Positions 1 through 35,357 of a DNA stretch of 64,000 nt are shown in pieces; the first letter of the stretch is position 1, and every line of letters begins with the position of its first letter. Under the pieces are notes generated by a model. The model was not told the DNA's origin and ran no database searches. It saw only the letters and a program-made list of their open reading frames with translations. Both the position numbers and the translations under genes were made by a program. The stretch comes from Blasia pusilla. Its lineage: Eukaryota. The stretch spans positions 21,266,001-21,330,000 of the forward strand of contig CM114271.1 of assembly GCA_050084515.1 (NCBI GenBank), read 5' to 3'.

Positions 1-330
1 CTCAAGGCGTCGATCTAAGGTGGTGACACGGGATGATAGACCACCGTTGGCCATGGCCAATAGGGTGGGGGATTTGAGGGCAGCCTTACCTATGTTGGTG
101 AGCTTCCCAACATCCCATGCCTTTCGTCAAGGAGGGCCAGGCATGATTTGGGATGAGGTGACCGAAGCATTGGAGGAGCCTACAGCAGATGAGCGCGAGC
201 GCGCCATGGGGTTCGCTACCGGTACTACGGCCGTTCCAGGGATGACTGAGGCATCCCGGAGATAGGTGTTGGGGCAGGCGATGGACCTCAACTGTCTCAC
301 ATGGATAGTCAGCCTATGTATGGCTGAGCA
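1..330 (+). pseudogene. C-terminal part of a DNMT3-like cytosine-C5 methyltransferase domain (motifs IX-X) in Gypsy pol
   Basis: EPTADERERAMGFATGTTAVPGMTEASRR*VLGQAMDLN resembles DNMT3 motifs IX/X (E.ER..GFP...T...R...LG). One in-frame TAG at 263-265. Same sequence as 23740-24050 on the minus strand. Confidence 0.8.
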
Positions 331-721
331 GAGACAGATGCGAGTGTCATCCATGCCGTCACGTCCACGAGTTGGACCATTGCCTATAGGGTCTGTACAG
401 GCATTGGATGGGGGCAAGAGGAGGAGAGATAGGCACCCATGGACTTCCTGGGACGTCGTTTGAGCAGAGAGTGCAAAGGCGGCCAGAGTAGCACATGTTC
501 ATTTTTCAGATGTAGAGCATGGTGTAGGAGGTCAGAATGGAGTGGCTGTTGCGGAGATGGCTAGGGTTGCTACATAGCAACCAAAGCCGCAGGTTGCGTC
601 CTTTCTGAGTGAGGTCACGATGGAGACTTGGGAGCCTATGATAGGTCTCAAGTTGATAGGAGGAGAGCGACGGTGAGTTCATAGGTTTCTGAGAGGGCAT
701 GTCAATTTTTTTGCCTTCAGT

Positions 722-1209
722 ATGAGAGACTTGGGTACGCTGAAGGGTCTCAGGATACGGATTGAGTTGGCTAGTGATACGCCAATCTTTCCTCGACCCT
801 ACAAGTATTCCGATATGGAGCGAGCCTTGATTCAGAGCAAGAGTCAGGACTTGTTGGAGGCAGGACTTGTGGAGTTATCACATGGGGAGTATGCATCTGC
901 CACAATCATGCCGACGAAGAAGGATATGTATGGCAATTGGACGGATAGGCGGATGTGTGGAGATTACCGTCCTATCAACCGACAGATGAGGTCAGATCGG
1001 TACGCCATGCCTAGTCCTGAGGAGATCTTTGATGCGGTAGGGCATGCAAAGATCTTCAATTCTTTAGATCTCCGTGATGGGTATCATCAGCTTCCTATTA
1101 GGTTGGAGGACAGGGAGAAGATAGCATTATGGGGGATAGATCAGTTCGGGAGAGATTGCTTGTATCATTAGCGGTTCTTACCATTTGGGTTGAAGAACGC
1201 GCCTGCAGA
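722..1209 (+). pseudogene. Gypsy reverse transcriptase, N-terminal half, truncated by a deletion
   Basis: PIFPRPYKYS, RMCGDYRPIN, RYAMPSPEEIFD, LDLRDGYHQ, PFGLKNAPA. The sequence then switches abruptly to Copia ASNHMT at ~1210. Confidence 0.9.
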
Positions 1210-3184
1210 TGCATCAAATCACATGACCTCACAAGCTAAATGGTTAAGTAGTTTGGAGCCGGTGAAAGATCCTGCCATTGTGCTCACACGAGATGACGCT
1301 CAACATCATATCACGCATACCGGTGAAGTTCCAATAGCATCAGATGGTCTTTGTGCTCGTGGAAATTTTCTCTATGTTCCTACCATTGCAAGAAACTTGA
1401 TCTTTGTAGGACACATAGCAGAACAAGGTTATCAAGTGAAGTTTAACGCAGATGGTTATTTCATTGAAACAATGGATGACCAGACTACGATAGCCAAAGG
1501 AACTAGATCTGGCAGAATGTTCAAATTAGATGTTTCTATGCCAGAGATTCAAACAATAATGTATGGTCAAACAAGCTAACAAGTCACAGATCTAAATATG
1601 TGGCACATTTAGATCTGTGACTGGAGACTGTGATTGGAGAATACATTCTGAAATTGCGTTGTGATGGAGGAGGAGAGTATCTTTCAAAAGAGTTTAATGA
1701 CTATTTACGTCAGAATGACATCCAACATCCAGTGACTTACCGTTACAAAATGGAGTGGTTGAGAGGAAGAATGGACATATTGCTGAAGCGGCACAAGCTA
1801 TGCTAAATGAGAAGAACATGCCTAAGGTCTATTGGGCAAAGGCTGTAGCATGTGCAGTCTTCTTAATCAACCGAACTCCAACAGCAAAAGTGTTTGATAA
1901 AACTCCATTCGAAGTCTTCACAAGAAGTAAACCTGATTTTTCCTTCTTGAAAGTATTTGGCTGTATTTTTTATGCTCATATTCCTTCTGAGAGACGTCAG
2001 AAATTAGACCCTAAGTCTGAAAGATGTATCTTCATTGGCTATGCCGATGGAACTAAGGGATATAAGTGCTACGTTCCATCCTCTAGGCATCTTATTGTTA
2101 GTCGGGATGTTGTCGTTGATGAGCTAAAGTCATGCTATGCTCCATCTAAGCCTATTCCACCTCTAAACTTGTCTGTTGAGAGGGAGAATATGACTGTAAA
2201 CCAACAGACATTGTCTTCAACTTCCCCAAGTACTAGCGCAGGATTAGGAGAGGTCCTAGATTCAACATTTAAATCTGTGAGTCCATGGACAGGAAGAGTA
2301 CGTATTTAGTCTGTTGACACTAGTCAGAGCTCGAGTCAGATGTCAGAGGCATCTACCTCTGAACAACAACTTTGTAGATCAAGTAGAGTTACACATCCAA
2401 TTCATAGATTCATAAATGAAGGTTTCCTTGCGACACATCATGCATTTATGGTGACTATCCTTCAAGAACAGGAGTCAAATTGTTTTGAAGAAGCTGCAAG
2501 TAAAGTCGAATGGATTGAAGCTATGGAGGAAGAGCTTGCTGCATTAAGACATCAACAGACATGGGAGCTGGTTGATATACCTTCCGGTAAGGAAGCTATT
2601 GGTTGCAAATGGGTTTACAAAATCAAGCGCAATCAAAATGGTAAAATTAAGAGATACAAAGCAAGATTGGTGGCTAAGGGCTATGCACAACAATATGGTA
2701 TCGATTATGAGGAAACATTTAGCCCTGTTGCAAAGATGGCGACTACGAGAACAGTGGTTGCAGTTGCAATAAGTAAGAAGTGGAGATTACATCACATGGA
2801 CGTCAAGAATGCCTTCTTGAATAGAGATCTATACGAGGAGATATATATGACTCAACCACCTGGATACGAGCATCCCAAGTTTCCATTTCGCATATGCACG
2901 TTGAAGAAAGCTCTATACGGGCTCAAACAAGCTCCAAGAGCTTGGTATGGCAAGATTACATACGTCCTACAAGAGTTGGGTTTTAGGGTATGTGATTCTG
3001 ACTCCTCGTTATATGTCTTGAGAGAACAAGATCATATAGTCCTCATTGTGTTATATGTTGACAATCTCTTGATTAGTGGGAGTACTGAAGAAATGGTACA
3101 ACAAGTCAAGCTTAAGTTACAAGCAAAATTTGATATGAAGGACTTGGGAGACCTCAAGTACTTCCTTGGTATTGAGTTTATCGA

Positions 3185-4215
3185 TGTCGTGCGTCTACTC
3201 TCCTTGAACGTTAATCTTGTTTGTTGCGGAAGCGTGCGTTCAGTAGGTCACGCTCTCAACGCTGATCTGCATCCAAACACGCACTTTGGTTAGTCGGGTC
3301 TTGGATCAATCAGCGGGATTACTTTCCGAGTTCTCGTCTCGGACTCTCATCAAGCTCAACCTTCCTAGTTTCAAGGTTTACAACACGGGAAAATCTTGAA
3401 AGACTTGGGACAGACTTTTTGGTCGGTTCAGGAACCTGAAACGGCGTTTCGCGCCTAGTAGTTCCAGCTGTCCGATGGACATCCAATGAGTCTCACATCA
3501 AGACTCGCACGAAATGAATCTCGAGTTGGAATCCAAGTGTGGCGTACAAAGTCCACTCCCTTGGATCAGGTTTGGGTTTCGAGTTCCCACGCCAAACTCC
3601 CGTTCCATCCCGTGCCTCTAAAATGCCGTTTGGCGCCAAAAGTGGGGATTCATTTTCCGAGACATCTCAGAGAGACTCCTCCCTTACTAGTACTTCTGGG
3701 GATCTCCGGGGGCCCCCTGCATTTAGGAAAAGACACCCGGGCCTCTCCAATTGGCCCTCAACCCGATTGCTCTTTCAATTGTTTTCGGCCAATATCTCAG
3801 CCTGTACTTATGCGTTTGCTAAGATCTTTGGTGCGTCGAAAGCGTCTTAAGATCAGCTTTCCAACGCAGCCTTATTTGTCCCGAACGCATCTTGGAGCTC
3901 AACGTTATGGTCCTAAACACAGTCAGATTCTCCCAAACGCTAGTCGTGTTCCAAACTGGTTCTCACCTCTTTGGCAACCAACCTCCCAAGACTCAACTCA
4001 TCTCAAGTCTTGGCTCGCGTTTGGTCTAGGTTTCTTGGTCGCGACCACTAACGCATGAAATGCACAACTTTGTTCTGCGTTTCGTCTCTTAGACTTTTCC
4101 AAGAGACTTTTCCAAACGTTTCTCCAAAGCGCAAACCTTGCAGCGTGAGTTCCCTTGAGTTCAGATGTTTCGCTTGGCGCCTATTTGGTATTGTTTGGTT
4201 ATGAGGGTTGTGAAA
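3185..4215 (-). repeat. Solo LTR (~1.03 kb) of the chromovirus family found at 31900-37579, inserted in Copia RT
   Basis: Begins tgtcgtgcg and ends ggttgtgaaa (degraded ggtcgcgaca). Perfect 5-bp TSD ATCGA at 3180-3184 and 4216-4220. Clearly similar to 31900-32902. Confidence 0.9.
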
Positions 4216-4602
4216 ATCGAGGTTGGAGAGCATGTGGTTACTACAACAATAATGTGCTCTTCATATGCTCTCAAAATATGGTATGACTGCTTGTAAGCCA
4301 ATCTCTACACCGTTGGACCAGAACGTTAAGCTAAGAGTGGATGAAGGAGAGCTGCTTGCAGATTCTAATGTGTACAGGTGCATGGTTAGAAGTTTAATCT
4401 ATCTAACTATAACTAGACCAGATTTGAGCTATGTTGTTGGCCTAGTCAGTCAGTTTATGCATGCACTACGAAAACCACACCTTGATGCTATGGGGAGGAT
4501 TATGCGGTATGTGAAATTCTCTATTCAATGCGGGCTTCAATTTGAATCTTCTCCGAGTTTTCAATTATAGGGATTCACAGATGCTGATTGGATAGGAAGC
4601 GT

Positions 4603-5840
4603 TGTCGTATAATAAAATCAGCCAATGTGTAAACTCCTTCCTCATTAAGTGTTAGATAGAGTTTTATTAGTATTATATAAATTAGCCTAGGAAAAAGAAA
4701 TTCCTATGTTTAAACCTCTTTATGGTGCCTCTTTTATGCGGGCCCAACTTTAGGAAAAGAGGTGATAAATAAAAGATGACTTTATAAAAGCAAAAGTAGT
4801 CTTGGTTGGTGACTAGGTTAGTTGGGGTAATTTGGAAAATATCAAGTGGATAAAAGAGGATATTTTGGAAGAGATAAGAGAAAATCTACTTATGTCAAAA
4901 TGTGATTGGCTAAGCCTTGAGAGGTAGCCATGTGGCACAAGTTAAGATTAGCTCTATTTTGTACTCTTGTGGATCCCTGGTGAATATATAAAGAGGAGGG
5001 ACCTTCAAGGGTTCATCACCTTCTATTTCACATCTTGAGTCTCTCGTGTCACTCTTAAGTGTATGTCTTTGGGATTGCTTGCTCTTCCAATGAGAGTAGA
5101 TCGCCCTTCTTGGGAGAGTAACTTGACCATGATCTATTCTCCGAGAGGTTTCTAGAGTGTGGTGTGTGTGTGTGGAGATGAGAGGCTTGTCACCTTAGAG
5201 GATTTTAGTCATACTAAAATAGTGAATTTTTTGGCTTGTTATTTTCCCAATGAGAGGGGATTACCCCTCTTGGGAGAATAATTCCGCCAAAGCCCATTCT
5301 TGAGGAGAGTAGAGAATGTCTGTCAAGCATGGATAGGGGTAGAGCACGAGTTGTGTCTAACTTTCCTTTCCTCAATCCTTACCATGTCAAGGTACTCTTT
5401 GTAGATAGGTACTGGTTCACTCGTTATTTAGTTTATCATTTTGGGGAGGCGTTCATGAACCAAGTCATGCAATCTCGAACTCCGGTGATTATTCTTATCG
5501 TCACGTATGGAAGGACATGGGATTGTACTTTGTATGTCCTTATATAGCGATCCATGGACGTCAATAGACCTGCACAAGTAGGGTTTAACACTAGTTGTGC
5601 TATCTTCCTCGTGTACAAGCGTAACGTAGTTTATAGGGATTTTATAGTTAGGAATTTCAGGGTCCGATGTCATGAAGAAGTGATCGCCTCAACACTTCCA
5701 TTTGTTATACTTGTCGTGAGAGAATAGAGAGTATACATAATAATTTTGTATTGAAAAAGGAGAACTTCTTAAGGTCATCGACTACGTCTACCGCAGCTAG
5801 AAGGTCCGCCCTTACTCGAAGAAAGGCTCTTGACACAACA
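4603..5840. repeat. Solo-LTR-like insertion (~1.24 kb, TG...CA) in Copia RNase H
   Basis: tgtcgtata...gacacaaca, flanked by GCGT/GCAT (4-bp TSD with one transition). Removing it restores GFTDADWIGSVSDRHSTS. A second copy lies at 42318-43592. Confidence 0.85.
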
Positions 5841-6291
5841 GCATGTCTGATCGACACTCCACATCTAGTTATTCATTTGCTTTGGGAAGCGCAGCTATAA
5901 GTTGGGCTTCAAAGAAGCAACCTACAGTTGTTTTATCTTCAATAGAGGCTGAGTACAAAGGAGCAACCAATGCAGCATGTGAGGCGGTGTGGCTTCATCG
6001 ATTACTTGTTGAGATTGGTGTTAGTAACTTAGGACCTAGTGTAATATATATAGACAATATTAGTAGCATCAAGCTTAATAATAACCTTATGTTTCATACT
6101 CGTACAAAGCATGTTGAGGTGCACTATCATTTTATCATAGAGAAAGTGCTTGTAGGGGAAATTGATCTTGTGTGTATAAGTACACATCAGCAAATTGCTG
6201 ACATCTGTACAAAGGCATTGTCGAGAGATAAGTTTGAGATGTTTAGAAATGATTTAGGTGTTAAAGATATCGATATGAGCTTGAGGGGAAG

Positions 6292-6603
6292 TATTGAAGA
6301 TTGAGTTACAGTCAAGCTCATGAGACACATGAACTGTTACATTTGGTACTCACATGAAGTAGGGAAGCTTAATCTTGGTTAGTTACTTAAGCACGATTAT
6401 CTTAACTACGGTTAGTTAATCCCAGTTAGTCTAACTCTAGACTATGGTTAAAATTAGGGTTAGGGTTGCTTGTACATACCCTATATAATTGAGAAGAGGA
6501 CCAGCCTCCACTCATTCTCTCATTGCAAGTTTCGTTCTCCATGGTAGTGTGTGTGTGTGAGAGCCGTTTTCCACTAGTTACGCTTGTTTAGCAGTTTTCC
6601 ACA
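6292..6603 (+). repeat. Copia 3' LTR
   Basis: Follows the PPT directly. Starts tattg (TGTTG-like), contains tatataa, ends ccaca at the junction with Gypsy RNase H. Confidence 0.75.
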
Positions 6604-8375
6604 CTTAAGTGGTTGATGGAGTATGACAAGCTTACAGGGACGCTTGCAAGGTGGGCTCTATTGTTACACGAGTATGATTTCCAAGTGGTGCATAGACCTA
6701 AGATGCTCAACCACAATGCCAATGGTTTGAGCCGTAATCCATGTCCGAGTCAGCGAGATGCGACTGGAGGTCGTTGGCATGGTGAGAGTGATGAGGAGTT
6801 GGTGCCAAGATGGCACGCGTCTGCCTATTTGGGCTTGTTGGCTATGGAGAGCCAGATTGCTGAGACTTTGATGGAGAGGTTTGATGGAGAGTCCTTAGAT
6901 CCAGAGGCTAGTGAGGAGAGGACAGGTGGCCGAGATATTCACGATGATGGAGTAGTCTTGGAGTACCTATGACTTGGCAGCGTCGCGATCACAGTGGGTG
7001 CTAGAAAGCGGGATCGGATCCTACAGTGAGCCATACGGTTCCGGTGGGAGGGGACACATGTGTTGCGAGTTTGGAAGGATGGTAGAGTACGTGTAGTGCC
7101 TCATCCTTCACAGAGGGCACGTTTGGTGCGTCATGCCCACGGGGAGTTGGGTCAGTTTGGAGTGAAGCGGACGTACAACTTTCTCCAGATACAATATTGG
7201 TGGCGAGGCATGTAGACTGACGTTTGTTGCCAGGTGCATGGTTTGTGATCGGGTCCAAGTATCGTTCAATGCTTTGACTCCACAGTTGCATCCACTTCCG
7301 ATCATGGGTTTAGGTTATAGATGGAGTTTGGATTTTGCAGGACTTCTGCCTTTGACAGAGCGCCATAGTCGTTATGTGTTGGTGATGGACGAGCACTTCT
7401 CAAAATGGATAGAGTTGGTTGCATTGCTTAACAAAGCAAGTGAGGGAGTAGCGTATGCCTTCCTAGATTGAGTGCTGAGTTATTACGGCGCACCAGCTGA
7501 GGTGTTGACAGACCAGGGTACGGAGTTTCGCAAGGAGTTTCAGGCCTTGTGTGATCAGTTGTTGATCGACCATCGCACCACTTCACGAGATCATCTTGAG
7601 GCGGATGGACTAGCATAGAGGGTTTTGTACAAGGTGAAGAAAAGATTACACAAGTATGGCTTGCAGAGAGGTCACCTAGGAGATTGGGACCTCCAATTGT
7701 CGTGGTTGGCAATGGGATAAAGATTCAGCAGGCAGGCATCCTTAGCGTCTTTCTCACCGTACTTGCTACTTTATGGCCGATGGCCGGATTTACCTACGGC
7801 CATTCGTTGAGATGTTGGTGAGGTGTTGAACTTTGATGACCTTGACGTATGGATGCGAGCATGTTCTCAGAGGGCTAAGTTGTTTTGGAGAGTGATGCCC
7901 ATGGCGTTTGAGAACTTGGCGATTGAGCAACATCGGGATACGTTGAGGTATGCGACTATTCGGGGAGGTGATTATCGACCTACTATCCAAAGGTTTGATT
8001 AGGGAGACTACGTCTACTTGCAATAGACGTTATCCACGATGTTGGATGTGATTGTAGGGCGCACTATCTTGAGAGTGCGTGAGGTTTTGCCATGTGGTGT
8101 CCTCTTATTGGAGGGACGTGATGGTATGGTTTGGAAGGACCATGTGCATAAATTTGCGCCATGTCACCTTCTGAACATTGATACTACAGTTGATCCGAGC
8201 TTAGCAGTAGTTCATGTAGGCTTACAATGTATGTTGTGTGGTTCCGCCCGTGGTGCAGCCACTATGCTAGTCTGTGATGGATGTTCGAGCGGATGGCATA
8301 TGACATGTTTGACGCCACCTCTCACTATGGTTCCTCAGGAATGATGGATGTCTCCCAGATGCACATAGACTAGGT
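6604..8375 (+). pseudogene. Gypsy RNase H end, HHCC/rve integrase and C-terminal PHD finger (copy 1)
   Basis: LARWALLLHEYDFQVVHRP, NANGLSR, WSLDFAG, EHFSKWIE, then CMLC...LVCDGCSSGWHMTCLTPPL..VP...WMSPRC (C4HC3 PHD pattern, one Cys lost). Confidence 0.88.
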
Positions 8376-8531
8376 AGTTCTAGATTTTGACTTGTGTCTG
8401 TGACATGGATGACAAGAAGGCGACTAACGATGGGGCCACATGAGCACCCGACCTTTGTGCTAGAGCAAAAAGGCCCCGTGATAGATGACTATCTGGAGTT
8501 AGAGGGTCCCAACCAACAACTAGGGGGGAAA

Positions 8532-9303
8532 ATTGGAGATATTTTGCTAGTCGTCGTCTTGTTTTTTGGATGCCATGAGTAAGCATGGGATGTGCGTGTT
8601 TGTATGTGTATTCGGTGATACGGATGTATGTTGTGTAGAGACGTGTATGCGCACGACGGTTGTCACGTCTTTTAGGATAGATCGATAAGATCTAGTAGAG
8701 CACCTTCACAAGCAATGGAGGACAGGCTCAAGAGGTCGAAGATGATTTGCTGAGGCCCCGAGAAACCTAAGAGAGCAGGTTTCCCCTTCGTTTCGGCTCA
8801 ATTGTAGCTATATTGAAGAACTTACTATTTTGGGTAAATACCATTTTGAGTATATGGTCAAATTTCTATTTTGGGAAGGGGCCCTTGACCTCCTATATCA
8901 TGTCAAGAGCCAAGGAGGTGACTTAGGAGCATAGGTTACCATGGAGAGAGCTTGGGAGAGAGGAGGGGATATACCTCAAGGAGAGAGAGCTTGAGAGCTC
9001 ATTCTTTATTTGTTGAACCTCTTGCCATGAGGCGGCAGAGCTATGGTCCCTTGCCTTGTGAGTGTCACCCAAGTCTCTCATTAGGAGAGTGGGTTTGGTT
9101 TGACATTGAGAGAGACATGTGAGATTGCACAAATGTGAGAGCTATGGTGTTGTGAGACAGATTTGACCTTATTTTATTGGAGATATTTTGGTACTCCTCG
9201 TCTCGTTGTTTGGATGCTATGAGTTAGCATGGGATCGTACGTGTTTGTGTGCGTATTCGGTGACAGCGATGTATGTTGTATAGCGATGTGTATGCGCATG
9301 ATA
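8532..9303 (+). repeat. 3' terminal split repeat B1 (8532-8658) - A (8661-~9156) - B2 (9176-9303) of Gypsy copy 1
   Basis: attggagatatttt...tatgcgcacgacg recurs as attggagatatttt...tatgcgcatgata on each side of an A block starting tgtcacgtctttt. A purine run taggggggaaa precedes B1. Confidence 0.88.
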
Positions 9304-14832: not shown

Positions 14833-14859
14833 ACAAGTAAATAAAATTGTTGTTTTATT

Positions 14860-17500: not shown

Positions 17501-18543
17501 TCATTTAGCGTTTTAAGTTTATTCCTATTGTGGATATTATATATGAAATTGGCACATGACTAGTTATACAAAATTTTAAAGGTGATGAATGGATGTGGTT
17601 TTGTGTTCTCGGTGGAGGTGGATTCTTTGGTTGAGGAGCCACATTCAATTGTTTTTTCTTGTAGTGTAAAAAGTTATCATAGAAGATAGCTTGCAGATGT
17701 AGTCATCAGAGAAATGAATGAGGTTGTTTTCTCAAGAAGAACTTTGCTGTTTGGACATCCAATATGTTCAAAAGAATAACCAGTTCATGATTTTGGCCAC
17801 AAGGAGACTATAAATCTATTTTCTTTCTCCCTTTTAGATATGGCGGCTTAGTGTAGTCTTTTTTCCTCTTGACAACTTTAGAGTTTGGACCTACTTTCAG
17901 AAGTTGAAAAAAAAATCTTCCTGTTGTTTTTTGTGTGGTCCAAATCGCTATAAGTTGTGGAAGACACTCATATTGGTGAATACCATAGAGGAGATATGCT
18001 TTTAGAGGTTCCTTTATAGGGAAATGTTCACCTACATATTCTTTTGGGCAACTTTCTTCTCGCTATACACCTATATGTGTGAACAAGTGTCTATGTTTTC
18101 ATATGTGGCATATGAATACTTGTTATGAGTATTTGACAAAGTTTGCACATCTCCAAAGCAAAGACATAAGTGCATGATGCATCAATTCATGATATACTCA
18201 CTTGGCTCTGGTACACAACATTATGAGTGCAAAGACATTTTACCTTGAATATTAGAACTCAATGAACATAAGAAGAATAGCATGTTCCCTTGTATTGCTC
18301 AACCACGGTTGATGGAAGGTATTCCATACTTTATTTGAGTAGATTTGACACCAATAGGTTTTCCTTTCATGACCTCTTCCATTATTTCAGTAAGATATTC
18401 AGGAAATCCTTTCATTTCTTCTTGCTGTGTCTTCATTTTTACTACACAATATAACACAATGTGTTCTTAAATAAATGGAGATTTCCCTTTGTATGCATAT
18501 TGGAAGGCATTCTGGAATTCTGTCACCTACAAAGAGGGAAATT

Positions 18544-19140
18544 ATGACTTAAGTTCTACCATGTGTTTAATGTGGATGGTGTGTTGCTTTGATCCTTTCT
18601 TCCTCCTTCTGTTGGATTTAGAATTATCTCTGTCATAATATAACTTGCTATTGGGGAGTGCTCACTTTTCGTAATTTTATTCTCTTATCATGTTAATCAC
18701 TGTGGCCTTTGTGTCCATTACGGAAGGCATTCTAGCGAACAGTAAACTTCCAAACATTACACAATGACTTAAGTTCTATCATGTGTTTAGTGTGGATGGT
18801 GTGTTGCTTTGATCCTTTCTTCCTCCTTCTGTTGGATTTAGAATTATCTCTGTCATAATATAACTTGCTATTGGGGAGTGCTCACTTTTCGTAATTTTAT
18901 TCTCTTATCATGTCAATCACTGTGGCCTTTATGTCCATTACGGAAGGCATTCTAGCAAACAGTAAACTTCCAAACATTAAACAATGACTTAAGTTCTACC
19001 ACATGTTTAGTATGTATGATATGTTGCTTTGATCCTTTCTTCCTTCTTCTGTTGGATTCAGAATTATCTCTATCATGATATAACTTGCTATTGGGAAATG
19101 CTCACTTTCCATAATTTTTTCTCTTACGGTGTTAATCATT
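18544..19140. repeat. 220-bp tandem repeat, ~2.7 copies
   Basis: atgacttaagttcta at 18544, 18764 and 18984. The first two units are nearly identical. Confidence 0.95.
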
Positions 19141-19566
19141 TTGGACCATGATCAATTACTTTGCAGGATAACATGGACATAAATATATCTCCCAACCCTC
19201 TATTGGAACCTCTTGATTGGATGGACCATATACATGTGCATCAAAGTGCTTTAACCAAAAGAGTCTTGGCCATGCGGAGGATACAAGTTCAAGGGGACTT
19301 GCCGCCTGGACCGATATTAGCATTGCGCTTACACTGGGATATTCACAATATTGTGTTCATTCCTTGGGAAAGACTGCAAGATTTCATTGAAGGCGAGGGT
19401 GATGGAGATGGGATGAATCCCACAAATTTCTGGAAAGGAACGTCAAGATGTTTGAAAGATGCAGGAGAGATCGAACAAGAGGATCCATCATACGTGTCGT
19501 GCGCATACACATCGCTACACATCGCTACCCTAAAGTAAGCTCCAATCTCTCTCATTCTCCACCATC

Positions 19567-20048
19567 TCACACCATAGCTCTCAAAGGTGTGCACTCTCTC
19601 TCATGTCAAACCAAACCCACTCTCCTAATGAGAGGCTTGGGTTACACTCACAAGGCAAGATACCATAGCTCCGCCGCCTCATGCCAAGAGGTTCAACAAA
19701 GAGAGAATGAGCTCTCAAGCTCTCTCTCCTTGAGGTATACCCCTCCCCTCTCCCAAGCTCTCTCCATGGTAACCTATTCTCCCAAGTCACCTCCTTGGCT
19801 CTTGACCTGATGTAGGAGGTCAAGGGCCACTTACCAAAAATAGTAAGTCAATCATATTCTCAAAATGGTACTTACCTAAAATAGTAAGTTCCTCAATATG
19901 GCTCCAAATGAGCCGAAACGAAGGGGAAACCTACTATCTCAGGTTTCCAAGGGCCTCAGCACGTCACCCTCGAGCTACTGGGCGTGTCCTCCACTACTCA
20001 TGAAGGCACTCTATCAGATCTCACCGATCTATCCTAAAAGACGTGACA
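19567..20048 (-). repeat. Repeat A2 (3' copy), flanked by B1 (20051-20172) and a short B2 (19495-19566)
   Basis: Near-identical to 28462-28943. Both B blocks end gcacgaca on the element strand. Purine tract ctaggggggag (20173-20183) precedes B1. Confidence 0.9.
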
Positions 20049-20352
20049 GTTGTCGTGCACATCGCTACACAACATACATCGCTGTCATCGAACACACACA
20101 CAAACACGCATGATCCAATGCTAACTCATGGCATCCAAACAACGAGACAAGAAGTACCAAAATATCTCCAATCTCCCCCCTAGCTGGTGGTTAGGTCCCT
20201 CTAACTTAAGATAGCCATCTATCCCTACCTACCGTGACATACATCTCTCGGACGCTAAGAGCAAGAAGATCGGGTGCTCATGTGGCCCCATCGTTAGTCG
20301 CCTCCTTGTCATCCATGTCACAGACACAAGTTGGAATGTAGAACTACCTTCT

Positions 20353-20495
20353 CTATGTACATCTGGGACACATCCATCGTCCCTGAGGAACCCTAGTGAG
20401 AGGTGGCGTCAAACATGCCATCCTCTCGAACACCCATCACAGACTAGCATCGTGGCCGCACCACGGGCAGAACCACACAACATACAATGCAAGCC
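20353..20495 (-). pseudogene. PHD finger at the integrase C-terminus (copy 2)
   Basis: Minus strand reads CMLCGSARGAATMLVCDGCSRGWH-(small deletion)-LTPPLTRVPQGRWMCPRCT*. Confidence 0.85.
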
Positions 20496-20499
20496 TGCA

Positions 20500-21620
20500 G
20501 GAACTACTGCTAAGCTCGGATCTACTGTACCATCAATGTTAGGAAGGTGACATGGCGCACAATTACGCACATGGTCCTTCTATACCATACCATCGCGTCC
20601 CTCCAGCAAGAGAACACCCGATGGCAAAATATCACGCACTCTCAGGATAGTGCGCCCTGCAGTCACATCCAACGTCGTCGGTGCCGTCTGCTGCAAGTAG
20701 ACATAATCTCCTTGATGAAACCTCCGGATAGTTGGTCGATAACCACCAACCCGAATAGTCGCATACCTCAACGTATCCCGATGTTGTGCAATCGCCAAGT
20801 TCTCGAACGCCATGGGCATCACTCTCCAAAATAACTCAGCCCTCTGAGAACATGCTCGCACCCATACATCTGGGTCATCAAGGTTCAACACCTCACCAAA
20901 GACATCTCGCGAATGGCCGAGGTAAATCGGCTCGGCCATAAAGTAGCAGCACGGTGAAAAAGACGCGCTAAGGATGCCTCGCTCTTTGAATCAGTATCCC
21001 ATCGCCAACCATGGAAACTAGAGGTCCCAATCTCCTAGGTGACCTCTCTGCAAGCCATACTTGCGTAAACCCCTCTTCACTGTCTGCACAACTCTCTCCG
21101 CTAATCCATCCGCCTTGGGATGATCTCGCGAAGTCGTGCGGTGGTCGATCAGCGCCTGATCACACAAGGCTTGGAACTCATCGCGAAACTCGATACCGTG
21201 GTTTGTCAACACCTCAGCCGGTGTGCCATAATGACTCAGCACTCTGTCAAGGAAGGCATAAGCTACTCCCTCACTCGCTTTGTCAGGCAATGCAACCAAC
21301 TCGATCAACTTCGAGAAGTGCTCGACCATCACCAACACATAACGACTATGACGCTCCGTCAAGGGCAAAGGTCCTGCAAAATCCAAACTCCATCTATACC
21401 CTAAGCCCATGATCGGTAACGGATGCAACTATGGAGTCGGAGCATTGAACGATGCTCGGACCCGATCACACACCATGCACTTGGCAACAAACTGCTGAAC
21501 GTCAGTCTGCATGCCTCACCACCAATACTAAATCTGGAGCAAGGCATGTCCGTCGCTTCACCCCAAAGTGACCCAACTCCTCGTGGGCATCTTTGCACTA
21601 GTCGTGCTCTCTGCAAAGGA
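20500..21620 (-). pseudogene. Gypsy DDE integrase (HHCC + rve)
   Basis: HEELGHFG, LHPLPI, WSLDFAGPLP, VEHFSK, YGTPAEVLTNHGIEF, HPKADGLAERVVQTVK. Confidence 0.92.
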
Positions 21621-21969
21621 TGCGGCACTCACGCGTACTCTGCCATCCTCCCAAACCCTCAAAACATGTGTCCCCTCCCAACGGAACCGCCCGGCCATTT
21701 GTGAGGATCCGATCCCGCTCTCTAGCATCCATGGTGCTTTAACGCTTGCCAATATGTCTGAAGATACTCCAAGACTACTCCATCATCATGAATATCTCGG
21801 CCACTTGTCGTATCCTCACCGGCCTCGGGATCAGGACTCTCCACTAGACCTGCGCCATCGAAGTCTCCACACTCGGCTCTCCATAGCTAACATGCCTAAA
21901 TAGGCGTCGTGCCATCCTGGCACCGACTCCTCATCACTCTCTCCATGCCATCGTTTGCGCCGATGCATC

Positions 21970-23407
21970 TCTCGACTCGGGCATGGGTTACGACTCAACC
22001 CATCGCATCCTGGTTGAGTGTCCCAGGTTTATGTACCACCTGAAAATCATACTCCTGCAACAACAGAGCCCATCTCGCAAGCTTCCCTGTAAGCTTGTCG
22101 GACTCCATCAACCACTGAAGTGGTTGATGATCAATGATGATGGTAAAGGGGTTGCCGAATAAGTAACACTTGAAATGCATGACAGCCCACACCGCAGCCA
22201 AGCACTCACCCTCAATCGAGCTATACTTTGCCTCTGCAACATTGTTCGAGCGGCTAGCGTAAGCCACCACAAACTCTCTACCCTCATCATCATGCTGGGT
22301 GAGCACCGCTCCAAGCCCCAACATGCTCCAATCTGTGTGCAACTGGAAAGGACGCCCCCTGATCGGTCTCCTCAAGATGGATGCGGACGTCAACTTGTCC
22401 TTGAGCAACTGAAATGCTCGCTCCTGCTCATCCCCCCGGTGCCACTCATGATCCACCTTGGTCAGCAAGGTCAGTGGCTTCACAATCGAATTGAATCCCT
22501 TGACGTATCGCCGATAGAAGTTTGCCAATCCCATGAATGCGCAAACACAGCTCACATCTGTAGAGCGTGGAATGTGTGAGATAGCCTCTACCTTTGTCTG
22601 CTAAACACCAAGGACCCCTGGGTATATCGTATGACCCAAATACTCAATCTAGTCGTAGAAGAACTTGCACTTGCCTGGATGTAGCTTCAGCCCATGTAAT
22701 TGCAATCGTCTAAACACCTCCTCTAGATGTTGCTCATGCTCCTCAACCGTGGCGCTAAAGACTACGATGTCATCAATATAACACCTAGCAAAATCCAGAC
22801 TAGCCAAGATCCTATCCATGACCCTCTGAAACTCAGCCGGGGCGTTCTTAAGCAAATGGTAAGAACCGCCTTTGTTACAAACAATCCTTCCGTGAGGATC
22901 GATGCCCCAAAATGCCATCTTCACTTTGTCCTCCAATCGATGGCGGTGATGATGGTATCCGGCTTCATAAATCAATGAATTGAAGACCTTTGCGTGACCA
23001 ATTGCATCAAAGATCTCCTCAGGGGTGGGCATGGCATATCTATCGGACTTCGTCTGCCGATTGATAGGTCGGTAATCCCCACACATCCGCCTATCCGTCC
23101 ACTTGCCATGCACATCCTTCTTGGCGGGCATGACAATTGCAGATGCATACTCCCCATGCGACATCTCCACTAGTCCTGCTCCGACCAAGTCCTGGCTCCT
23201 ACTTTGAATCATAGCCCTCTCCATATCATTGTACCTGTAGGGTCGTCGGAAGATAGGCATATCACTCAACAACTCAATGCGGATCCCCGGTCCCTTTAGC
23301 GTACCCAAATCCTCCATGCTTAACGCAAAGCAGCTCCTATAACTCCGAGGGCGATGTATTCGGCGCCGCTCTCCTCCTGTCAACTTAGGGCCCATATCGG
23401 CTCCCAA
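21970..23407 (-). pseudogene. Gypsy reverse transcriptase and RNase H
   Basis: RMCGDYRPIN, LKNAPAEFQRVMD, YIDD, LKLHPGKC, FMGLANFYRRYVKGF, LHTDWS, YSSIEGECLA, IDHQPL, LARWALLLQEYDF. Confidence 0.95.
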
Positions 23408-23739
23408 GTCTCCATCATGACTACGGTAGGACTCTCCGGTAGCTGGTATCGGTGGTTGCTATGGTGCAACCCCGTCTCGAACAACAACACTCGGCCGCTC
23501 TCCTACACCAAGCGCAAACTCGATCTCCTCCGCGTGCGGTGCGAAACCACGCTTCGATGTTGTGGCTATCATCTCTTTTGCGTGCACTGCAAAACATCCC
23601 AAGAAGTCCAAGGGTGTCTCTCCCGATCTCCCCTCGTGCGTAGATCTCCTCGGGTCTCGCCCCCAGCCACTGCCTCCATTGTCTCGGTAGGCATGGGGCT
23701 CACCAACGCAACCGTTGTGATCTGTCGCGATCTCATACG

Positions 23740-24703
23740 ACGCTTCTGAGCCACTCCCAAGCTCAGGATCCATGTCAAGCGATTCAGGTCCATCGCTTTG
23801 ACCCAAGACATGGTGTCGTGATGCCTCGACATCGATGGTACCTGCCGTCACTCCTGTGGGAAATCCCATCGCTCGCTCTCTCTAGTCGGCGTTGGGCTCC
23901 ACCAACCGCTGAACCTGGTCATCCCAAACCAAGCCAGGACCGGCCTCCTTGTATGCATAGGAAGCGGGAAAACTCACAGACGTGGGTAAGGCTGCCCGCG
24001 GCCTGCCTACCCTGTTGACCACAGTCAACGGTGGTCGATCATCGTGCCTCACCGTGTGATCGGCGACTGGATCCGAATGGAATCCACTAACAAATGGGAG
24101 GGGCGCTCCACTCTGATACGCCCTCCATAACTTTGCATGGGGCACCAAGTTGGTCCACCATAGACGCGGCGATGGGTTCTAGAACCTACACTCGCCGCAT
24201 CCAAGAATTTCTTCTTTTGGGCGATCCAAGCACGCTTTTTGATGAGCACTCGTCACCACTCGTGACCTGGAGTCTCCTAAGATCGGCACATTCTCTTGAA
24301 TGTAGGCTAGAGAACGAGACTGGCGCTCCTGCAACTGCCGTAAGACCCTCAACATCTCCCAAAACAACCTGGACCGAGTGTCGCCAACCCGCTGCCTCGT
24401 CAAAGACTCGATTGTACGACGACATGGCCAACCGGCAATGACCAAATCAATGGTCCCTACCCGCTCTAAGTCCTGCGCCCCCAACAACAAAATATCCCTC
24501 GGTAGGGAACTCTGGTACCCATGTACTGCGGACGCAGACAATAAGTCGGGAAAATGTAGGCGTAATTGCGCCACATGTCGTAGTGAGACGCGCCTCGCAA
24601 CATCATCACTCTCCACATACAGGTACTGCTGTACTCACACTCTTGCCTGCAAAACAGCAGCTAACCCGGTGCTAATCCCTCCAAAGAGATCTAACACTCG
24701 AAT
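23740..24703 (-). pseudogene. DNMT3-like DNA cytosine-C5 methyltransferase domain embedded between protease and RT
   Basis: Motifs in canonical order: I IRVLDLFGGISTG (~24703), II YVESD, III RDI, IV DLVIAGWPC (Cys ~24422-24424), VI ENVP (~24295), LDAASVGSRTHR followed by frameshifted RLWWTN (VIII), IX RERAMGFPTGVT, X SRHHVLGQ/AMDLN. Confidence 0.88.
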
Positions 24704-25132
24704 ACCCTCCTCCGGGATACACCACACAATGGGTGTGGTATCCAAGGGTGTGATCGTAGCACTCCCTGTTACCTTGGGTTCCTCAGACCCGTCATGCTCT
24801 GGTGCAAACGCCTCGCTCCACGCGGTCTGCACGTGCTCATCTGCCAATCGTTGAAGCTCCTCAATCGAGCCCCACAACGGCACCTCTCCTCCACCGAATG
24901 ATGCAGCTACCATAACACTCCTCTCCATAGAAATGTCAGGAACGGGAGTATCCTCTGCATGGACATGTCCCTCAATCAAATCACTAGGCCAAGTGATGGC
25001 ACTACTAAATGCTGCTAAGGTCGCCATCTCTCCTGGCCGTTGCTTGATCACTGCACCCGTGAATCGAACTAGTAATGAGCTAAGGCGCCCATCACCTGAC
25101 TGCCATCCTGGTCTATAGGACGCTGACTCCTC

Positions 25133-25801
25133 TCAATAATCTAGGGAAAACCCCATCGGGTATAACATTGCTCCACCAACCAAGACGTCGTAGGACTGTG
25201 CATCAGTCACTATCGCCTTGGCGCGCACCACGGACTCATCTATAGGATGTCCCGGGAAAATCCTTACCACGACCTCTTGTCGGGTGATATACTGTGTGGT
25301 ACTCGCTCCACCCAAGGATGTCTGGATCCGGAATGGACAATGCTCCACATCGGCTTTCGTCAAGCCCAATCCTCTGAATGACGCTTTCCCCAACATCAAG
25401 GGTTGCGCTCCTGAATCCAACAAGACGAGCTCCGGACTAAAAGCTCTACCTCCAAAACTCACCAAGTGGAAGACCTCTCCTCGGTTATCCAACAACACAA
25501 CACCAGGAGAAGCCATGGCACGCTCTATCGCGGGTCTAGCGGGCATCTCCGCCATCCTAGCAGCCGCAGCCTGCCATGAATTTGACGTGGACGGCCCTAG
25601 CATCCGCTCCAAGGGCAGGTCCATCACCTCCTCTGCCATCACCTTTGAACGTGATGCAGGAACTCCAACTCCGCGCTCACATAGTGAAGCGGCCAGCCAA
25701 AAAGCCTCGGCGGGCGTACCCCCCAACGTCATAACATCAGAAGCAGAAAATAAAGGAGTGCGGTACACAACGGTGGCCGCCCCCAACAACGTGCTCGACA
25801 C
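25133..25801 (-). pseudogene. Retropepsin-like aspartic protease region
   Basis: VLLDSGAQP catalytic motif and YDVLVGG (DxLLG-like) motif, positioned between gag and the DNMT domain. Confidence 0.85.
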
Positions 25802-26260
25802 ATGCCCCTCCTAAGCATCAACAATAGGAGTCGTTGCACTCGCTTCTCCCATCGCCCTTCGTGCTTGCACACCAACAACATCACCAACTCTCCAGGAACT
25901 TTGATGAGGACCCATCGATGGGGTCCTCATCGCTTCGGACAACGTGAAAGACTGAGGAAGCCTAGTAAATCTTCGGCTTCCCGCATTTGTGGATCCAACT
26001 CGCGGTCGTTCCCGCGTCACAACTGCGGTGGCCTCCATCTGGGCAACCCCGCACATCCATCCAAGATCCTCCAGATCTCTGGCTGCTCCATATGATGTCG
26101 ATGCCACGGATCCGGAATCGGGTAACCTCAATGCCATAGCGGCAATTTGCTCCTATAGCTGCTGTATCTGAGCAGCCATCCCAGCCTCACGTCCGGCGTC
26201 TCCCTCGACGTGTCTAGGTGGTGGTACTCTACCTCCTCCACGGGCAGCTCCACCACCCTG

Positions 26261-27424
26261 TCAGGAAACTCCAGCTCCTCGTCTCCCAACGGGACCACGT
26301 GGTGCACGATCTCTAGGCCCACCCGGACCGGCTACTCGATCTGGTGCCCTCTCTGGCCCTCGGTCCGGACGTAACTCAGGATGTAAACTGAAACACCTGG
26401 CGCGTGTATGACCATACCTCTGACAATAGTCACACTGATAACCTCCTGGTGCAGCACCATCTCCTCCTCCATGTTGAGGCATACGTCCATGACCCAGAAG
26501 AGTGCAATCACGTTGATGATGGGCTCCACCACATGACCAACAAGTAATAGTAGGCGGCTGTTGCTGAGCGGCATATGAAGGCGCAGGTCTCTGTGGCACG
26601 GCCTCCCGGTATCCTCCCTGAGCTCGTGGTGCCACAGTCGACCTATCTCCGAGTCCAGGTTGCTGCATAGCTGGTGCAGACAATCCTGACTGCTCTCGCC
26701 CAGAACCCATGGTGGCTACGCTCTCCTCCACCATGTTGCGCTCAATGTTCTCGGCGGTCCTAAAAACATCTCTCAACGTAGGGGAGGTGTTCATAAGAAG
26801 CACCCCCTCCCGCACCCGTGTCCGCAGGGTCCGGTCCAGCATCGCGTACCATGACTGGATAGCCTGAGCCTCTATCACCCCCTGAGTGACGTTGATCAAC
26901 CGGCGCAAGCGAGTGTAAGCCTCACGCAAACTCTCACCCGGGCGCCTCTGGAAGTCGTGGATGCTCCGCAACTTCTCCGTCCGTACCCCCTGGTAGCTCG
27001 CCCTCAACTCAGCAAAGAACTCAACCACAAGGTTGAACCTGGGACGAACCCGACTAGACGGTGCAACTGCTCCCGTGCGAGTGACCCCTCCTAAAACGTC
27101 ACTAGTGGAAGAGGTAGTAGCCTCTCCTGACTCCTCCTCCTCGTCTGGGAACGGCTCCGTCCATGACACATAATGTGGGTCATAGTAGTGCCTCCACGCC
27201 TCGATCTCACATGCATATCTATGAGAGAACTCATGGTAATCGTCCATGGGCGCCCCCTCTAAATGCTCAAACATACCGTTCCATGTTGTAAATGGGTTGA
27301 ACTCTCTAGAGTTCCTGGCCCGCTGGGAGTCACACCAACTCCTAAACTCTGCTATAAAATCGTGCAACTCAATCGTGCCTACTGCACCTGAAAACCTACG
27401 CGGTCCTCTACCCCGGTCGTCCAT
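26261..27424 (-). CDS. Gag with two CCHC zinc knuckles
   Basis: 387-aa ORF. FQRRPGESLREAYTRLRRL (major-homology-like region), CWSCGGAHHQRDC and CDYCQRYGHTRARC. Confidence 0.88.
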   Translation of the reverse strand: MDDRGRGPRRFSGAVGTIELHDFIAEFRSWCDSQRARNSREFNPFTTWNGMFEHLEGAPMDDYHEFSHRYACEIEAWRHYYDPHYVSWTEPFPDEEEESGEATTSSTSDVLGGVTRTGAVAPSSRVRPRFNLVVEFFAELRASYQGVRTEKLRSIHDFQRRPGESLREAYTRLRRLINVTQGVIEAQAIQSWYAMLDRTLRTRVREGVLLMNTSPTLRDVFRTAENIERNMVEESVATMGSGREQSGLSAPAMQQPGLGDRSTVAPRAQGGYREAVPQRPAPSYAAQQQPPTITCWSCGGAHHQRDCTLLGHGRMPQHGGGDGAAPGGYQCDYCQRYGHTRARCFSLHPELRPDRGPERAPDRVAGPGGPRDRAPRGPVGRRGAGVS

Positions 27425-28461
27425 CTCGTACGCTCAACTGGTAGGACCACTCACAATGTGTGGCGATGTGCTCACACCCTCCCCCTTGTCTGACGATGAC
27501 ACAGAAGGAGGTCGAGGTGGTCCCTCACGTGGAGACCCTCGGAACCTCGCGCCACTCCGCGTAAAACCTCTAGAGCTACTCTCGAGTTCACCACCTCGCC
27601 TCTCAAAGTCCCGAACGGACTCCGTGATGACCCTCGTGCCCCTCTCACCTGATCACTCTGAACCTCGTGAGGAATCCCTCAATCACTCATCCCAAACATG
27701 CGGCACTCGATCTACACTCTCTCTTCCCGAGACGTGTAACGTGCGGCAACACGCGGCGTGGTGCGGCAAATCGACCAGGCTATCATCTCATCGAAAACCT
27801 ACCCTCAACTCCGGACATACCACACAGGTCTATGTCCCCTAAACCACATACATAAATAATGCTCTCAGCATCCACATACCCAATATCCCCAAATAAATCC
27901 CAGAATCCCTCACACGTGCAGGGTAAAGGACCAGAATGGGTAACCTGAACACATGTCGATGTCGCTCCTCAGCAACTGCAAATCTCGACCCCAACTCGAT
28001 TGTGGAGACAACTCCTCCAATCAGCAAGTCATACTCCTCCCGTACTGATGCTGCTCAAAACTCAACGATAGACAGTACGGTCCCAGCGGAACGGTGCGGC
28101 GTTGCAGGCGGCACGAAATGGCTACGAACGGCACGGCCCTCGATGGTGGGATGCGGCACTCGGCGGCATACCCTCCTCAATCAATAATAATCCCACACTC
28201 TTCTCCACAATGACGGTGCGTCTCCGCGATCGAGATGGTGCGGTGCGGCCACGAGCGGCAAGGCGCGGCAATCGACGGCGCGTTGCGGCTACGGGCGTCA
28301 CGGCACGATACTCGATCGTCGTCGAGCGGCTACCAATCACAACATAGCAGCATGAAATCAAAACTCAAACACCATAACCGGAGGTCATCTGCAATCAGTG
28401 GTTGATGAAGAAACTGCGATGACGGTGGCGGCCAAAACAAAGTACGTGGTGGCGACGCAAG

Positions 28462-28943
28462 TCACACCATAGCTCTCAAAGATGTGCACTTTCTCTCATG
28501 TCAAACCAAACCCATTCTCCTAATGAGAGGCTTGGGTTACACTCACAAGGCAAGATACCATAGCTCCGCCGCCTCATGCCAAGAGGTTCAACAAAGAGAG
28601 AATGAGCTCTCAAGCTCTCTCTCCTTGAGGTATACCCCTCCCCTCTCCCAAGCTCTCTCCATGGTAACCTATTCTCCCAAGTCACCTCCTTGGCTCTTGA
28701 CCTGATGTAGGAGGTCAAGGGCCACTTACCAAAAATAGTAAGTCGATCATATACTCAAAACGGTACTTACCTAAAATAGTAAGTTCCTCAATATGGCTCC
28801 AAATGAGCCGAAACGAAGGGGAAACCTACTATCTCAGGTTTCCAAGGGCCTCAGAAGGTCACCCTCGACCTATTGGGCGTGTCCTCCACTATTCATGAAG
28901 GCGCTCTATTAGATCTCACCGATCTATCTTAAAAGACGTGACA
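28462..28943 (-). repeat. Repeat A1 (5' terminal repeat) of Gypsy copy 2
   Basis: Starts tgtcacgtctttt on the element strand. Identity to A2 stops at gctatggtgtga. No B block and no TGG-type PBS follow. Confidence 0.9.
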
Positions 28944-35352: not shown

Positions 35353-35357
35353 GATAC

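Follow-up and report, generated by a model that had tools for sequence, protein, structure and literature searches.

A PHD finger at the end of the integrase is a conserved feature of a Gypsy-DNMT3-like retrotransposon family

DNA methyltransferases have been reported inside Gypsy retrotransposons of the green lineage. In KnitGypsy-Dnmt3, from the charophyte alga Klebsormidium nitens, a Dnmt3-related domain lies in the Pol open reading frame of a long terminal repeat (LTR) element of the Gypsy type that has DIRS-like repeats (PMC5890265, de Mendoza et al. 2018, as described in the parts of the text consulted). Here, we describe a similar element from Blasia pusilla, in a window of 64,000 nucleotides (GenBank assembly GCA_050084515.1, contig CM114271.1, positions 21,266,001 to 21,330,000, forward strand); positions below are counted from the first nucleotide of this window. 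Comparing the window to itself revealed an inverted pair of one Ty3/Gypsy element, with copy 1 on the plus strand and copy 2 on the minus strand. The element encodes, in this order, Gag, protease (PR), a DNMT3-like cytosine methyltransferase (hereafter DNMT), reverse transcriptase (RT), RNase H (RH), integrase (INT), and a PHD finger, and it has DIRS-like split repeats. As judged from its sequence, it is a bryophyte-type member of the published Gypsy-DNMT3 or KnitGypsy-Dnmt3 kind. The PHD finger on its integrase is a conserved feature of the Gypsy-DNMT3-like family and, in the texts that we searched, is not mentioned as belonging to the published kind.

The resemblance to KnitGypsy-Dnmt3 has two parts. 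In both elements, a DNMT3-related, unrearranged methyltransferase is found inside the Gypsy Pol open reading frame. Also, the published description of Gypsy domains within repeats in the order A-coding-B-A-B is matched by the window copies and by four metagenome loci. The hosts differ: KnitGypsy-Dnmt3 comes from a charophyte alga, whereas the relatives of the window's element are from bryophytes (Marchantia, Calypogeia, and Sphagnum). No Klebsormidium-named protein was among the matches to the integrase tail or to the DNMT, and the likeness to KnitGypsy-Dnmt3 is by description. The PHD finger is not mentioned in the main text or in the searched supplementary files of de Mendoza et al. (text only, Fig. 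4c aside). The name recurs as "streptophytes (Gypsy-DNMT3)" in part of another text (10.64898/2026.05.21.726589), and DNMT3 members embedded in retrotransposons are reported, with no mention of a finger, in PMC12344493. More broadly, in the literature that we searched (figures and bioRxiv supplements aside), no text reports that a Gypsy element with a DNMT also has a PHD finger.

Other mobile elements carry one or both kinds of domain. Chromoviruses, like the window's element, have a small domain of the histone-reader type after the SH3-like barrel of the integrase, at the end of pol. Theirs is a chromodomain, which is described as recognizing marks of heterochromatin and as directing new copies away from transcribed genes (10.64898/2026.05.21.726589). 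The window's element instead has a zinc-binding PHD finger, and it has a DNMT as well; the likely ligand of the finger would be the N-terminus of histone H3 rather than H3K9me. PHD fingers themselves have been reported in Ginger1 transposases (PMC2836005) and as an accessory domain in the Gag-Pol of the Chlamydomonas element Gypsy-7a_cRei (10.1101/2022.06.16.496473). For the PHD-bearing transposons of Chlamydomonas, the authors propose that the finger may help to avoid deleterious insertions (10.1101/2022.06.16.496473). Gypsy-7a_cRei differs from the window's element in its order (RT, RH, PHD, INT), and no DNMT is listed in the part of the description consulted, by which alone we compare the two. 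Finally, EpiLTRs are LTR elements that unite a chromatin reader with one or more DNA methyltransferases (10.64898/2026.05.21.726589), and so share with the window's element a reader domain and a DNMT in one LTR retrotransposon. However, their reader is a chromodomain, their DNMT falls in the DNMT4 group and is accompanied by an adenine methyltransferase, and their hosts are Cymbomonas and Euglena; in the text consulted, the authors call this acquisition distinct from that of Gypsy-DNMT3. The first-pass annotation of the window had proposed that the element combines a chromatin reader with a methyl writer. With Gypsy-DNMT3, Gypsy PHD fingers, and EpiLTRs already published, this idea is less new than the annotation held.

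Both copies in the window end pol in a C4HC3 PHD finger (Table 1), and the positions in the first-pass annotation (8225-8375 and 20353-20495) prove correct to within a few bases. In copy 1, the codon for the first Cys is at 8228-8230, the codon for the last Cys is at 8360-8362, and the stop codon of pol is at 8366-8368. When we searched Pfam with the translation of 8027-8341 (105 amino acids), the match to PF00628 (PHD) had 33.7 bits (E = 3.7e-8), as compared to a gathering cut-off of 24. The match covers positions 1-35 of the 47 in the profile and is ended by an in-frame stop (TGA at 8342-8344). The other lesions in this finger are a change from Gly to Glu just before the stop and a Ser at the seventh zinc ligand; seven of the eight ligands are retained. 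In copy 2, the finger opens with the Cys at 20486-20484 and has its last Cys at 20361-20359, ahead of the pol stop at 20355-20353. Right after a Trp-His pair, a deletion of 7 bases shifts the frame. The first half alone matches PF00628 with E = 0.0013 (19.1 bits, below the cut-off of 24), and the second half (...GRWMCPRCT-stop) is intact in another frame, so that all eight ligand codons are present but divided between two frames. Every lesion is private to one copy.

As the annotation also stated, the finger sits where chromoviruses have their chromodomain, and the window allows a direct comparison with its own chromovirus tails (SH3_Tf2-1 plus Chromo). A Pfam scan found no chromodomain in copies 1 and 2 or in sets of 12 and 32 relatives, and the same scan did detect the chromodomain of the chromovirus fragments nearby.

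The finger is a canonical C4HC3 PHD finger, and it is conserved across the family. Our search with the 105-residue integrase tail yielded 32 proteins with 46-77% identity. Those with names come from Marchantia polymorpha, Calypogeia fissa, and Sphagnum fallax and are annotated as hypothetical or as "PHD-type domain" proteins. The finger is in the same place in all 32, fused after the SH3-like barrel of the integrase with a fixed spacing. In the relatives scanned with Pfam, the score against PF00628 is 32-50 bits. The complete pattern C-x2-C-x11-C-x2-C-x4-H-x2-C-x13-C-x2-C is present in 24 of these proteins. In the other eight, one ligand is replaced (often Cys to Tyr) or the end is truncated or shifted, as expected of decayed copies. 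Identity within the finger follows that of the integrase tail, to about 40%. With a threshold of E ≤ 1e-3, an exhaustive HMMER search returned 6677 cluster representatives, and with E ≤ 1e-30, there were 309 (clusters at 50% identity); 144 of the 150 matches listed align through the finger. Similarly, all 46 ungapped metagenome copies have the finger, with all eight ligands in 35 of them. Among 35 proteins found by searching with the DNMT part, 10 have the intact ligand pattern, and most of the other 25 end upstream of the integrase. The wider architecture is RT-RH-H2C2-rve-PHD in the relatives P0016 and P0029 and PR-DNMT-RT-RH-H2C2-rve-PHD in P0054.

We also aligned 34 relatives. As these were selected for an intact ligand pattern, the ligands are invariant in this alignment by construction. 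Outside of the ligands, further positions are kept in nearly every relative: P202 and P208 (34/34 each), G194 and W212 (33/34 each), M185 (32/34), D189 and W195 (31/34 each), and G210 (30/34).

That the element also carries a DNA methyl writer, another statement of the first-pass annotation, is supported by PF00145 in the same polyprotein and by DNMT3A, 3B, and 3C as the nearest solved proteins. In copy 2, PF00145 matches 24182-24634 with E = 1.5e-5 (25 bits, against a cut-off of 22). The motifs FGG, PC, and ENV are visible there, and FxGxG-like, PCQ, and ENV motifs are kept in relatives. This part of copy 2 is 54-55% identical to Marchantia proteins with PF00145 (from a search among polyprotein-sized candidates), and the search also returned polyproteins that hold both PF00145 and PF00628. 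When the DNMT of the relative P0045 was compared to the Protein Data Bank (PDB), DNMT3A, 3C, and 3B came first (E = 2e-6 to 1e-5), with the bacterial enzyme M.HaeIII behind them.

The finger and the DNMT occur together in two domain orders, according to Pfam scans. The window's element and P0054 have PR-DNMT-RT-RH-INT-PHD, and P0060, P0061, P0065, P0058, and P0056 have RT-RH-DNMT-INT-PHD. Both domains were found in 7 of the 7 full or near-full polyproteins scanned. From the HMMER search, we then took a set of 32 representatives with at least 1300 residues. All 32 have the PHD finger. Pfam detected PF00145 in 13 of them at E ≤ 1e-3, and 29 match the family's own DNMT domains (phmmer, E ≤ 3e-12). 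As for the three without a match, P0113 and P0168 begin just before RT and have a short gap between RH and INT, and P0092 has no RT match; in these three, a DNMT placed upstream of RT, as in the window, would fall outside of the protein models. The metagenome data give a similar picture. We fetched 80 loci with the integrase tail, and 27 of these have at least 6 kb of upstream sequence. DNMT and finger are both present in 23 of the 27: in 21, the DNMT is 2.9-5.5 kb upstream on the same strand, and in two, it adjoins the tail after an internal deletion. The other four loci are truncated at the 5' end, with unrelated sequence upstream. Neither the long polyproteins nor the metagenome loci included an intact element with the finger but without the DNMT. 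Thus, the pairing of DNMT and PHD finger is near-obligate across the family.

Some relatives have additional domains. P0059-P0061, P0065, and P0056 have a conserved tail beyond the finger, and in P0056, this tail includes a Tudor domain like that of PTM/DIR17 (PF21743, E = 6e-8). This suggests a PHD-Tudor reader cassette in relatives with the order RT-RH-DNMT-INT-PHD and fits with a chromatin-reading tail. In P0171 and P0227, a G-patch lies between DNMT and integrase.

To what class of reader might the finger belong? We built an AlphaFold2 model of the intact relative P0003 rather than of the broken window copies. The model has helices, a small beta barrel, and the finger, with a mean predicted local distance difference test (pLDDT) of 70.6 and a predicted template modelling score (pTM) of 0.45; in the finger (residues 171-219), pLDDT is 80-89. 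In Foldseek comparisons, the root-mean-square deviation (rmsd) was 0.5-1.8 Å across the PHD fingers of DPF3b, MOZ, and ATXR5 (0.5-0.9 Å over 46-50 columns for DPF3b, and 0.5-1.4 Å for the second fingers of DPF3b and MOZ). By target, the Foldseek TM was 0.86 for the ATXR5 PHD finger with H3, and the scores were 0.82 for UHRF1, 0.81 for the BAZ2A PHD finger with unmodified H3, 0.71 for BHC80, and 0.59 for AIRE. The best structural matches include 5vab, 5t8r, 2puy, 3zvz, and 1xwh; 5t8r, 3t6r, and 5vab have H3 or unmodified H3 in their titles. Sequence comparison to the PDB (phmmer, E = 4e-14 to 6e-7) put CHD4 PHD2, PHF21A/BHC80, PHF12, KDM5A/B PHD1, and ATXR5 first, and also found DPF3, BAZ2A/B, UHRF1, and AIRE. 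The finger and these proteins have a common layout, L-x-C-D-x-C-x-x-x-[YFW]-H-x-x-C-L-x-P-P-L-x-x-x-P-x-G-x-W-x-C-P-x-C.

By both sequence and structure, then, the nearest solved relatives of the finger belong to the subclass that reads the unmodified H3 tail (BHC80/PHF21A, CHD4 PHD2, KDM5A/B PHD1, ATXR5, BAZ2A/B, UHRF1, and AIRE PHD1). These are host chromatin proteins, whereas here the finger is on the integrase of a transposon. In the portion of the literature consulted, AIRE, BHC80, and DNMT3L are described as a subclass that reads unmethylated H3K4, with no aromatic cage and with an acidic residue against K4 (PMC2261226), and likewise, KDM5B PHD1, UHRF1, and subsets of PHD fingers in general are reported to read unmethylated H3K4 (PMC4225485, PMC3214078, PMC8166343). 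In our alignment, 30-34 of the 34 relatives retain the P-x-G-x-W loop and the L-x-C-D strand. We take these to be the segments that hold the N-terminus of H3 in reader complexes. Overall, the finger looks more like the unmodified-H3-tail class than like the H3K4me3 class, as judged from alignments and the predicted structure. Our best guess from these comparisons is that it would be an H3-tail reader without a methyl-lysine cage.

What would such a reader do for a retrotransposon? We propose, as the reasonably likely explanation, that the finger is the normal C-terminal module of the integrase in a large and old green-lineage clade of Ty3/Gypsy elements with a DNMT3-like domain in pol, and that it tethers integration. 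If it works as the chromodomain does in chromoviruses, the finger would tether the complex of integrase and cDNA to nucleosomes via the N-terminal tail of histone H3. It would probably prefer tails without K4 trimethylation (H3K4me0-type), and insertions would be steered from H3K4me3-marked promoters into chromatin that is silent or poor in genes. Separately from the finger, the DNMT would act on the DNA of the element, and it may methylate the element or its surroundings; any mechanistic coupling of the finger and the DNMT is speculation. Tethering of integration seems the likeliest role because the nearest solved PHD fingers are readers of the unmodified H3 tail. The same likeness suggests insertion away from H3K4me3 promoters when it is considered together with a Gly that is three residues after the fourth Cys in 33 of the 34 relatives: this is presumably the position at which BPTF and ING2 carry the Trp of their cage.

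Several points count against this proposal. In the window's subfamily, the first loop, from the second to the third Cys (GSARGAATMLV), does not have the acidic residue that contact with unmethylated K4 would lead one to expect. AIRE-type readers are described as contacting K4 through an Asp in that loop (D297 of AIRE; PMC2261226). A Glu two residues after the second Cys, which may be equivalent to D297, is found in only 6 of the 34 relatives. (More distant relatives of the algal type have several acidic residues in the first loop.) The targeting role itself is argued by analogy, and two copies in a transposon-rich stretch (n = 2) say nothing reliable about targeting. Finally, copy 2 has frameshifts and 10 in-frame stops in 1812 codons, copy 1 has a nested Copia sequence, and just 2 of the 46 ungapped metagenome copies are free of stops over the 218 codons examined. 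The window copies are thus dead and most of the metagenome copies decayed, so that any current activity would be hypothetical.

Alternatively, the finger could work for the DNMT, much as an ADD domain does: it would sense unmethylated H3K4 and license or recruit the element's DNMT, and the choice of integration site would be unaffected. This would fit with the presence of both domains in nearly all long polyproteins, and the DNMT is DNMT3-like, which is suggestive in that the Cys-rich domain of DNMT3L is reported to read H3K4me0 (PMC2261226). In the five relatives with the order RT-RH-DNMT-INT-PHD, the DNMT, integrase, and finger are contiguous, so they could remain one mature protein. In elements of the window type, however, the DNMT and the finger are about 1100 residues apart, with RT, RNase H, and the entire integrase between them, and the protease of an element normally cleaves its Pol polyprotein. 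Furthermore, the finger is always on the integrase barrel and never beside the DNMT, and it is a plain PHD finger rather than an ADD module (GATA-like plus PHD). We therefore consider a service to the DNMT rather unlikely, although it is more plausible for the order DNMT-INT-PHD than for the window's order. In relatives with the former order, the parts may act as a single integrase-methyltransferase-reader protein. A more ambitious idea is that the integrase-PHD unit and the DNMT3-like domain form a coupled reader and writer on which the clade as a whole relies: the finger would place the copy in H3K4-unmethylated chromatin, the methylase would mark this copy or the DNA around it, and the element would write its own heterochromatin. 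This seems doubtful to us.

It is also conceivable that the finger is a zinc module with a function other than reading histones, and that it binds a host protein or DNA or aids the multimerization of the integrase. PHD folds do serve non-histone partners in some proteins, and the acidic residue missing from the window's subfamily would be easier to understand. But the best matches in both sequence and structure are all readers of the histone H3 tail, the loop and strand described above are kept in most relatives (30-34 of 34), and one relative has a Tudor domain after the finger, so a role of this kind looks improbable. Lastly, both copies are degenerate and neither holds a complete finger by itself, which might raise the suspicion of a chance pattern of Cys and His or of a host exon captured by these two copies alone. 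This is refuted by the Pfam score of copy 1, which exceeds the curated cut-off, and by the presence of the finger throughout the family (all of the relatives and ungapped metagenome copies, and nearly all of the cluster representatives listed), and we give it practically no credence.

The features of the two copies are collected in Table 1. Copy 1 runs from the start of the window to about 9290, and over the parts that align (BLASTN), it is 75-83% identical to copy 2: 614-1167 aligns to 23421-22873 with 75% identity, and 6602-9150 aligns to 22122-19569 with 83% identity. About 750 bp of copy 1 are gone at the site of the Copia sequence, where homology between the copies breaks. Copy 2 has a single frame from 27433 to 21998 (1812 codons) that is interrupted by the in-frame stops only. 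Its decayed protease region has no Pfam match, and PF13650 is found at the equivalent place in P0054. Relevant to the Gag assignment, the Marchantia relative P0034 is labelled a CCHC-type domain protein in its source.

Table 1. Features of the two copies of the element in the 64,000-nucleotide window
Feature	Position	Strand	Evidence or remarks
Copy 1, 5' part, cut by window start	1..1171	+	DNMT end 2-460; RT start 677-1168
Copia-type sequence nested in copy 1	1172..6304	+	PF25597 at 1719-2306; PF07727 RVT_2, E = 2.5e-73, at 2310-3290
Copy 1, RNase H end through integrase to finger	6592..8227	+	Several stops and frameshifts
PHD finger (C4HC3), integrase C-terminus, copy 1	8228..8362	+	Translation; Pfam PF00628; DNA alignment of both copies
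3' repeats, copy 1	8530..9290	+	B1 8530-8646, A2 8661-9150, B2 9176-9290
Copy 2, whole element (about 9.45 kb)	19495..28943	-	TG...CA ends; 4-bp duplication CGTA at 28944-28947 and 19491-19494
Repeat A1, 5' LTR-like, copy 2	28462..28943	-	97.1% identical to A2 over 482 nt
Gag, two CCHC-type knuckles, copy 2	26264..27433	-	Translation
Aspartic protease region, copy 2	25136..25810	-	LLDSGA motif in translation
DNMT3-like C5 cytosine methyltransferase, copy 2	23885..25132	-	Between protease and RT; two in-frame stops
Reverse transcriptase, copy 2	22652..23458	-	PF00078, E = 1.9e-16
RNase H, copy 2	21998..22600	-	PF17917, E = 9e-36; PF17919, E = 2e-31
Integrase, frameshifted, copy 2	20583..21782	-	PF00665, E = 1.5e-11; translations; architecture of P0016 and P0029
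Integrase zinc-binding part, copy 2		-	
Integrase DDE core, copy 2	21021..21428	-	
Integrase C-terminal barrel, copy 2	20583..20990	-	
PHD finger, integrase C-terminus, copy 2	20359..20486	-	Translations; PF00628 on first half
Repeat B1, copy 2	20058..20172	-	Directly upstream of A2; polypurine run precedes
Repeat A2, 3' LTR-like, copy 2	19567..20048	-	Repeat mapping
Repeat B2, internally deleted, 3' end of copy 2	19495..19556	-	Alignment

The repeats of copy 2 are arranged A1-coding-B1-A2-B2, and copy 1 shows B1, A2, and B2. We checked 22 metagenome loci for this arrangement. A1 is present in six of them; four of these six repeat B1 directly after A2 (91-94% identity), and the other two end too early. 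If A1 and B2 are taken as the ends, then copy 2 and three independent metagenome loci (L033, L072/L017, and L021) start with TG and finish with CA, and each is flanked by a perfect target duplication of 4 bp. The duplicated bases are CGTA for copy 2 and, among the three loci, CATA, AAGG, and TCTC. (L017 and L072 share flanks and were counted once.) By eye, we saw no primer-binding site starting with TGG after A1. At the joint between B1 and A2, the sequence resembles the two ends of the element set head to tail with 2-4 bases between them. Split repeats like those of DIRS and Ngaro elements are thus found here together with a DDE integrase, TG...CA ends, and 4-bp duplications.

Among the lineages of REXdb, Phygy is a non-chromovirus lineage from Physcomitrella with elements of 7.7-10 kb and 4-bp duplications, all of which (100%) have the form NCGN (PMC6317226). 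The window's element agrees with Phygy in its size and in the length of its duplication. We considered whether the NCGN preference of Phygy might be linked to a DNMT, and rejected this as none of our four duplications fits NCGN; the sample is small, and our ends include B2, which an LTR finder might set elsewhere. The first-pass annotation had assigned PHD-bearing Gypsy elements to Selaginella (Selgy clade), and we found no support for this. REXdb describes Selgy as 4.4-6.7 kb, with GAG / PROT-RT-RH-INT and no extra domain (PMC6317226), as compared to about 9.45 kb with DNMT and PHD finger for the window's element. The term "PHD" is absent from the main text of the REXdb paper and from the supplementary files searched (PMC6317226).

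Both copies in the window are long dead and add no function of their own. Across 3171 aligned bases, there are 180 GC-to-AT and 113 AT-to-GC differences, which lean towards GC-to-AT in copy 1. We asked if methylation had driven this decay, by deamination of cytosines, and did not retain the idea, as the stop pattern of copy 2 is not clean: of its 10 stops, two are clearly at sites where relatives have Trp or Gln (one each), and several are at Glu, Leu, or Lys sites, which need transversions. The G+C content is 52-56% in copy 2 (20001-28000), 41-47% in copy 1 (1-10000), and 37-51% in most of the rest of the window.

The window is rich in other transposons, with the nested Copia sequence and two chromovirus fragments. 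The latter lie a few kb from the PHD-bearing elements and include an inverted pair of integrase tails at 33573-34319 (minus strand) and 35330-35908 (plus strand), whose matches to SH3_Tf2-1 and Chromo have E = 6e-15 and 2.5e-14, along with the zinc-binding and core parts of an integrase at 34376-34813 (minus strand). About 350 bp past the 3' end of copy 2, at 18486-19145, a unit of 220 nt is present three times in tandem (100%, 88%, and 74% identity to the first). At 38009-39304, three open frames follow one another, with 178, 126, and 126 residues. The first has no Pfam match; the second and third share their initial 60 residues, pointing to a tandem repeat of about 380 bp. On the plus strand at 14845-16668, open stretches of 289, 142, and 175 residues follow one another in one frame, with single stops between them and no Pfam match. 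This is possibly another decayed mobile element or a gene.

Our results also bear on genome annotation. Many gene models in Marchantia, Calypogeia, and Sphagnum that are labelled "PHD-type domain" or "DNA (cytosine-5)-methyltransferase" are pieces of this transposon family and therefore should not be counted as chromatin genes of the host. The occurrence of DIRS-like split repeats together with a DDE integrase hints at an unusual way of regenerating the ends. More generally, retrotransposons that carry chromatin tools show mobile DNA negotiating with host silencing. In this family, the integrase with its histone-reader-type finger and the DNMT3-like writer have stayed together across a large clade that ranges from alga-like sequences to bryophytes. 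The family is thus a natural system in which to test whether a transposon chooses its chromatin and then writes its own methylation.

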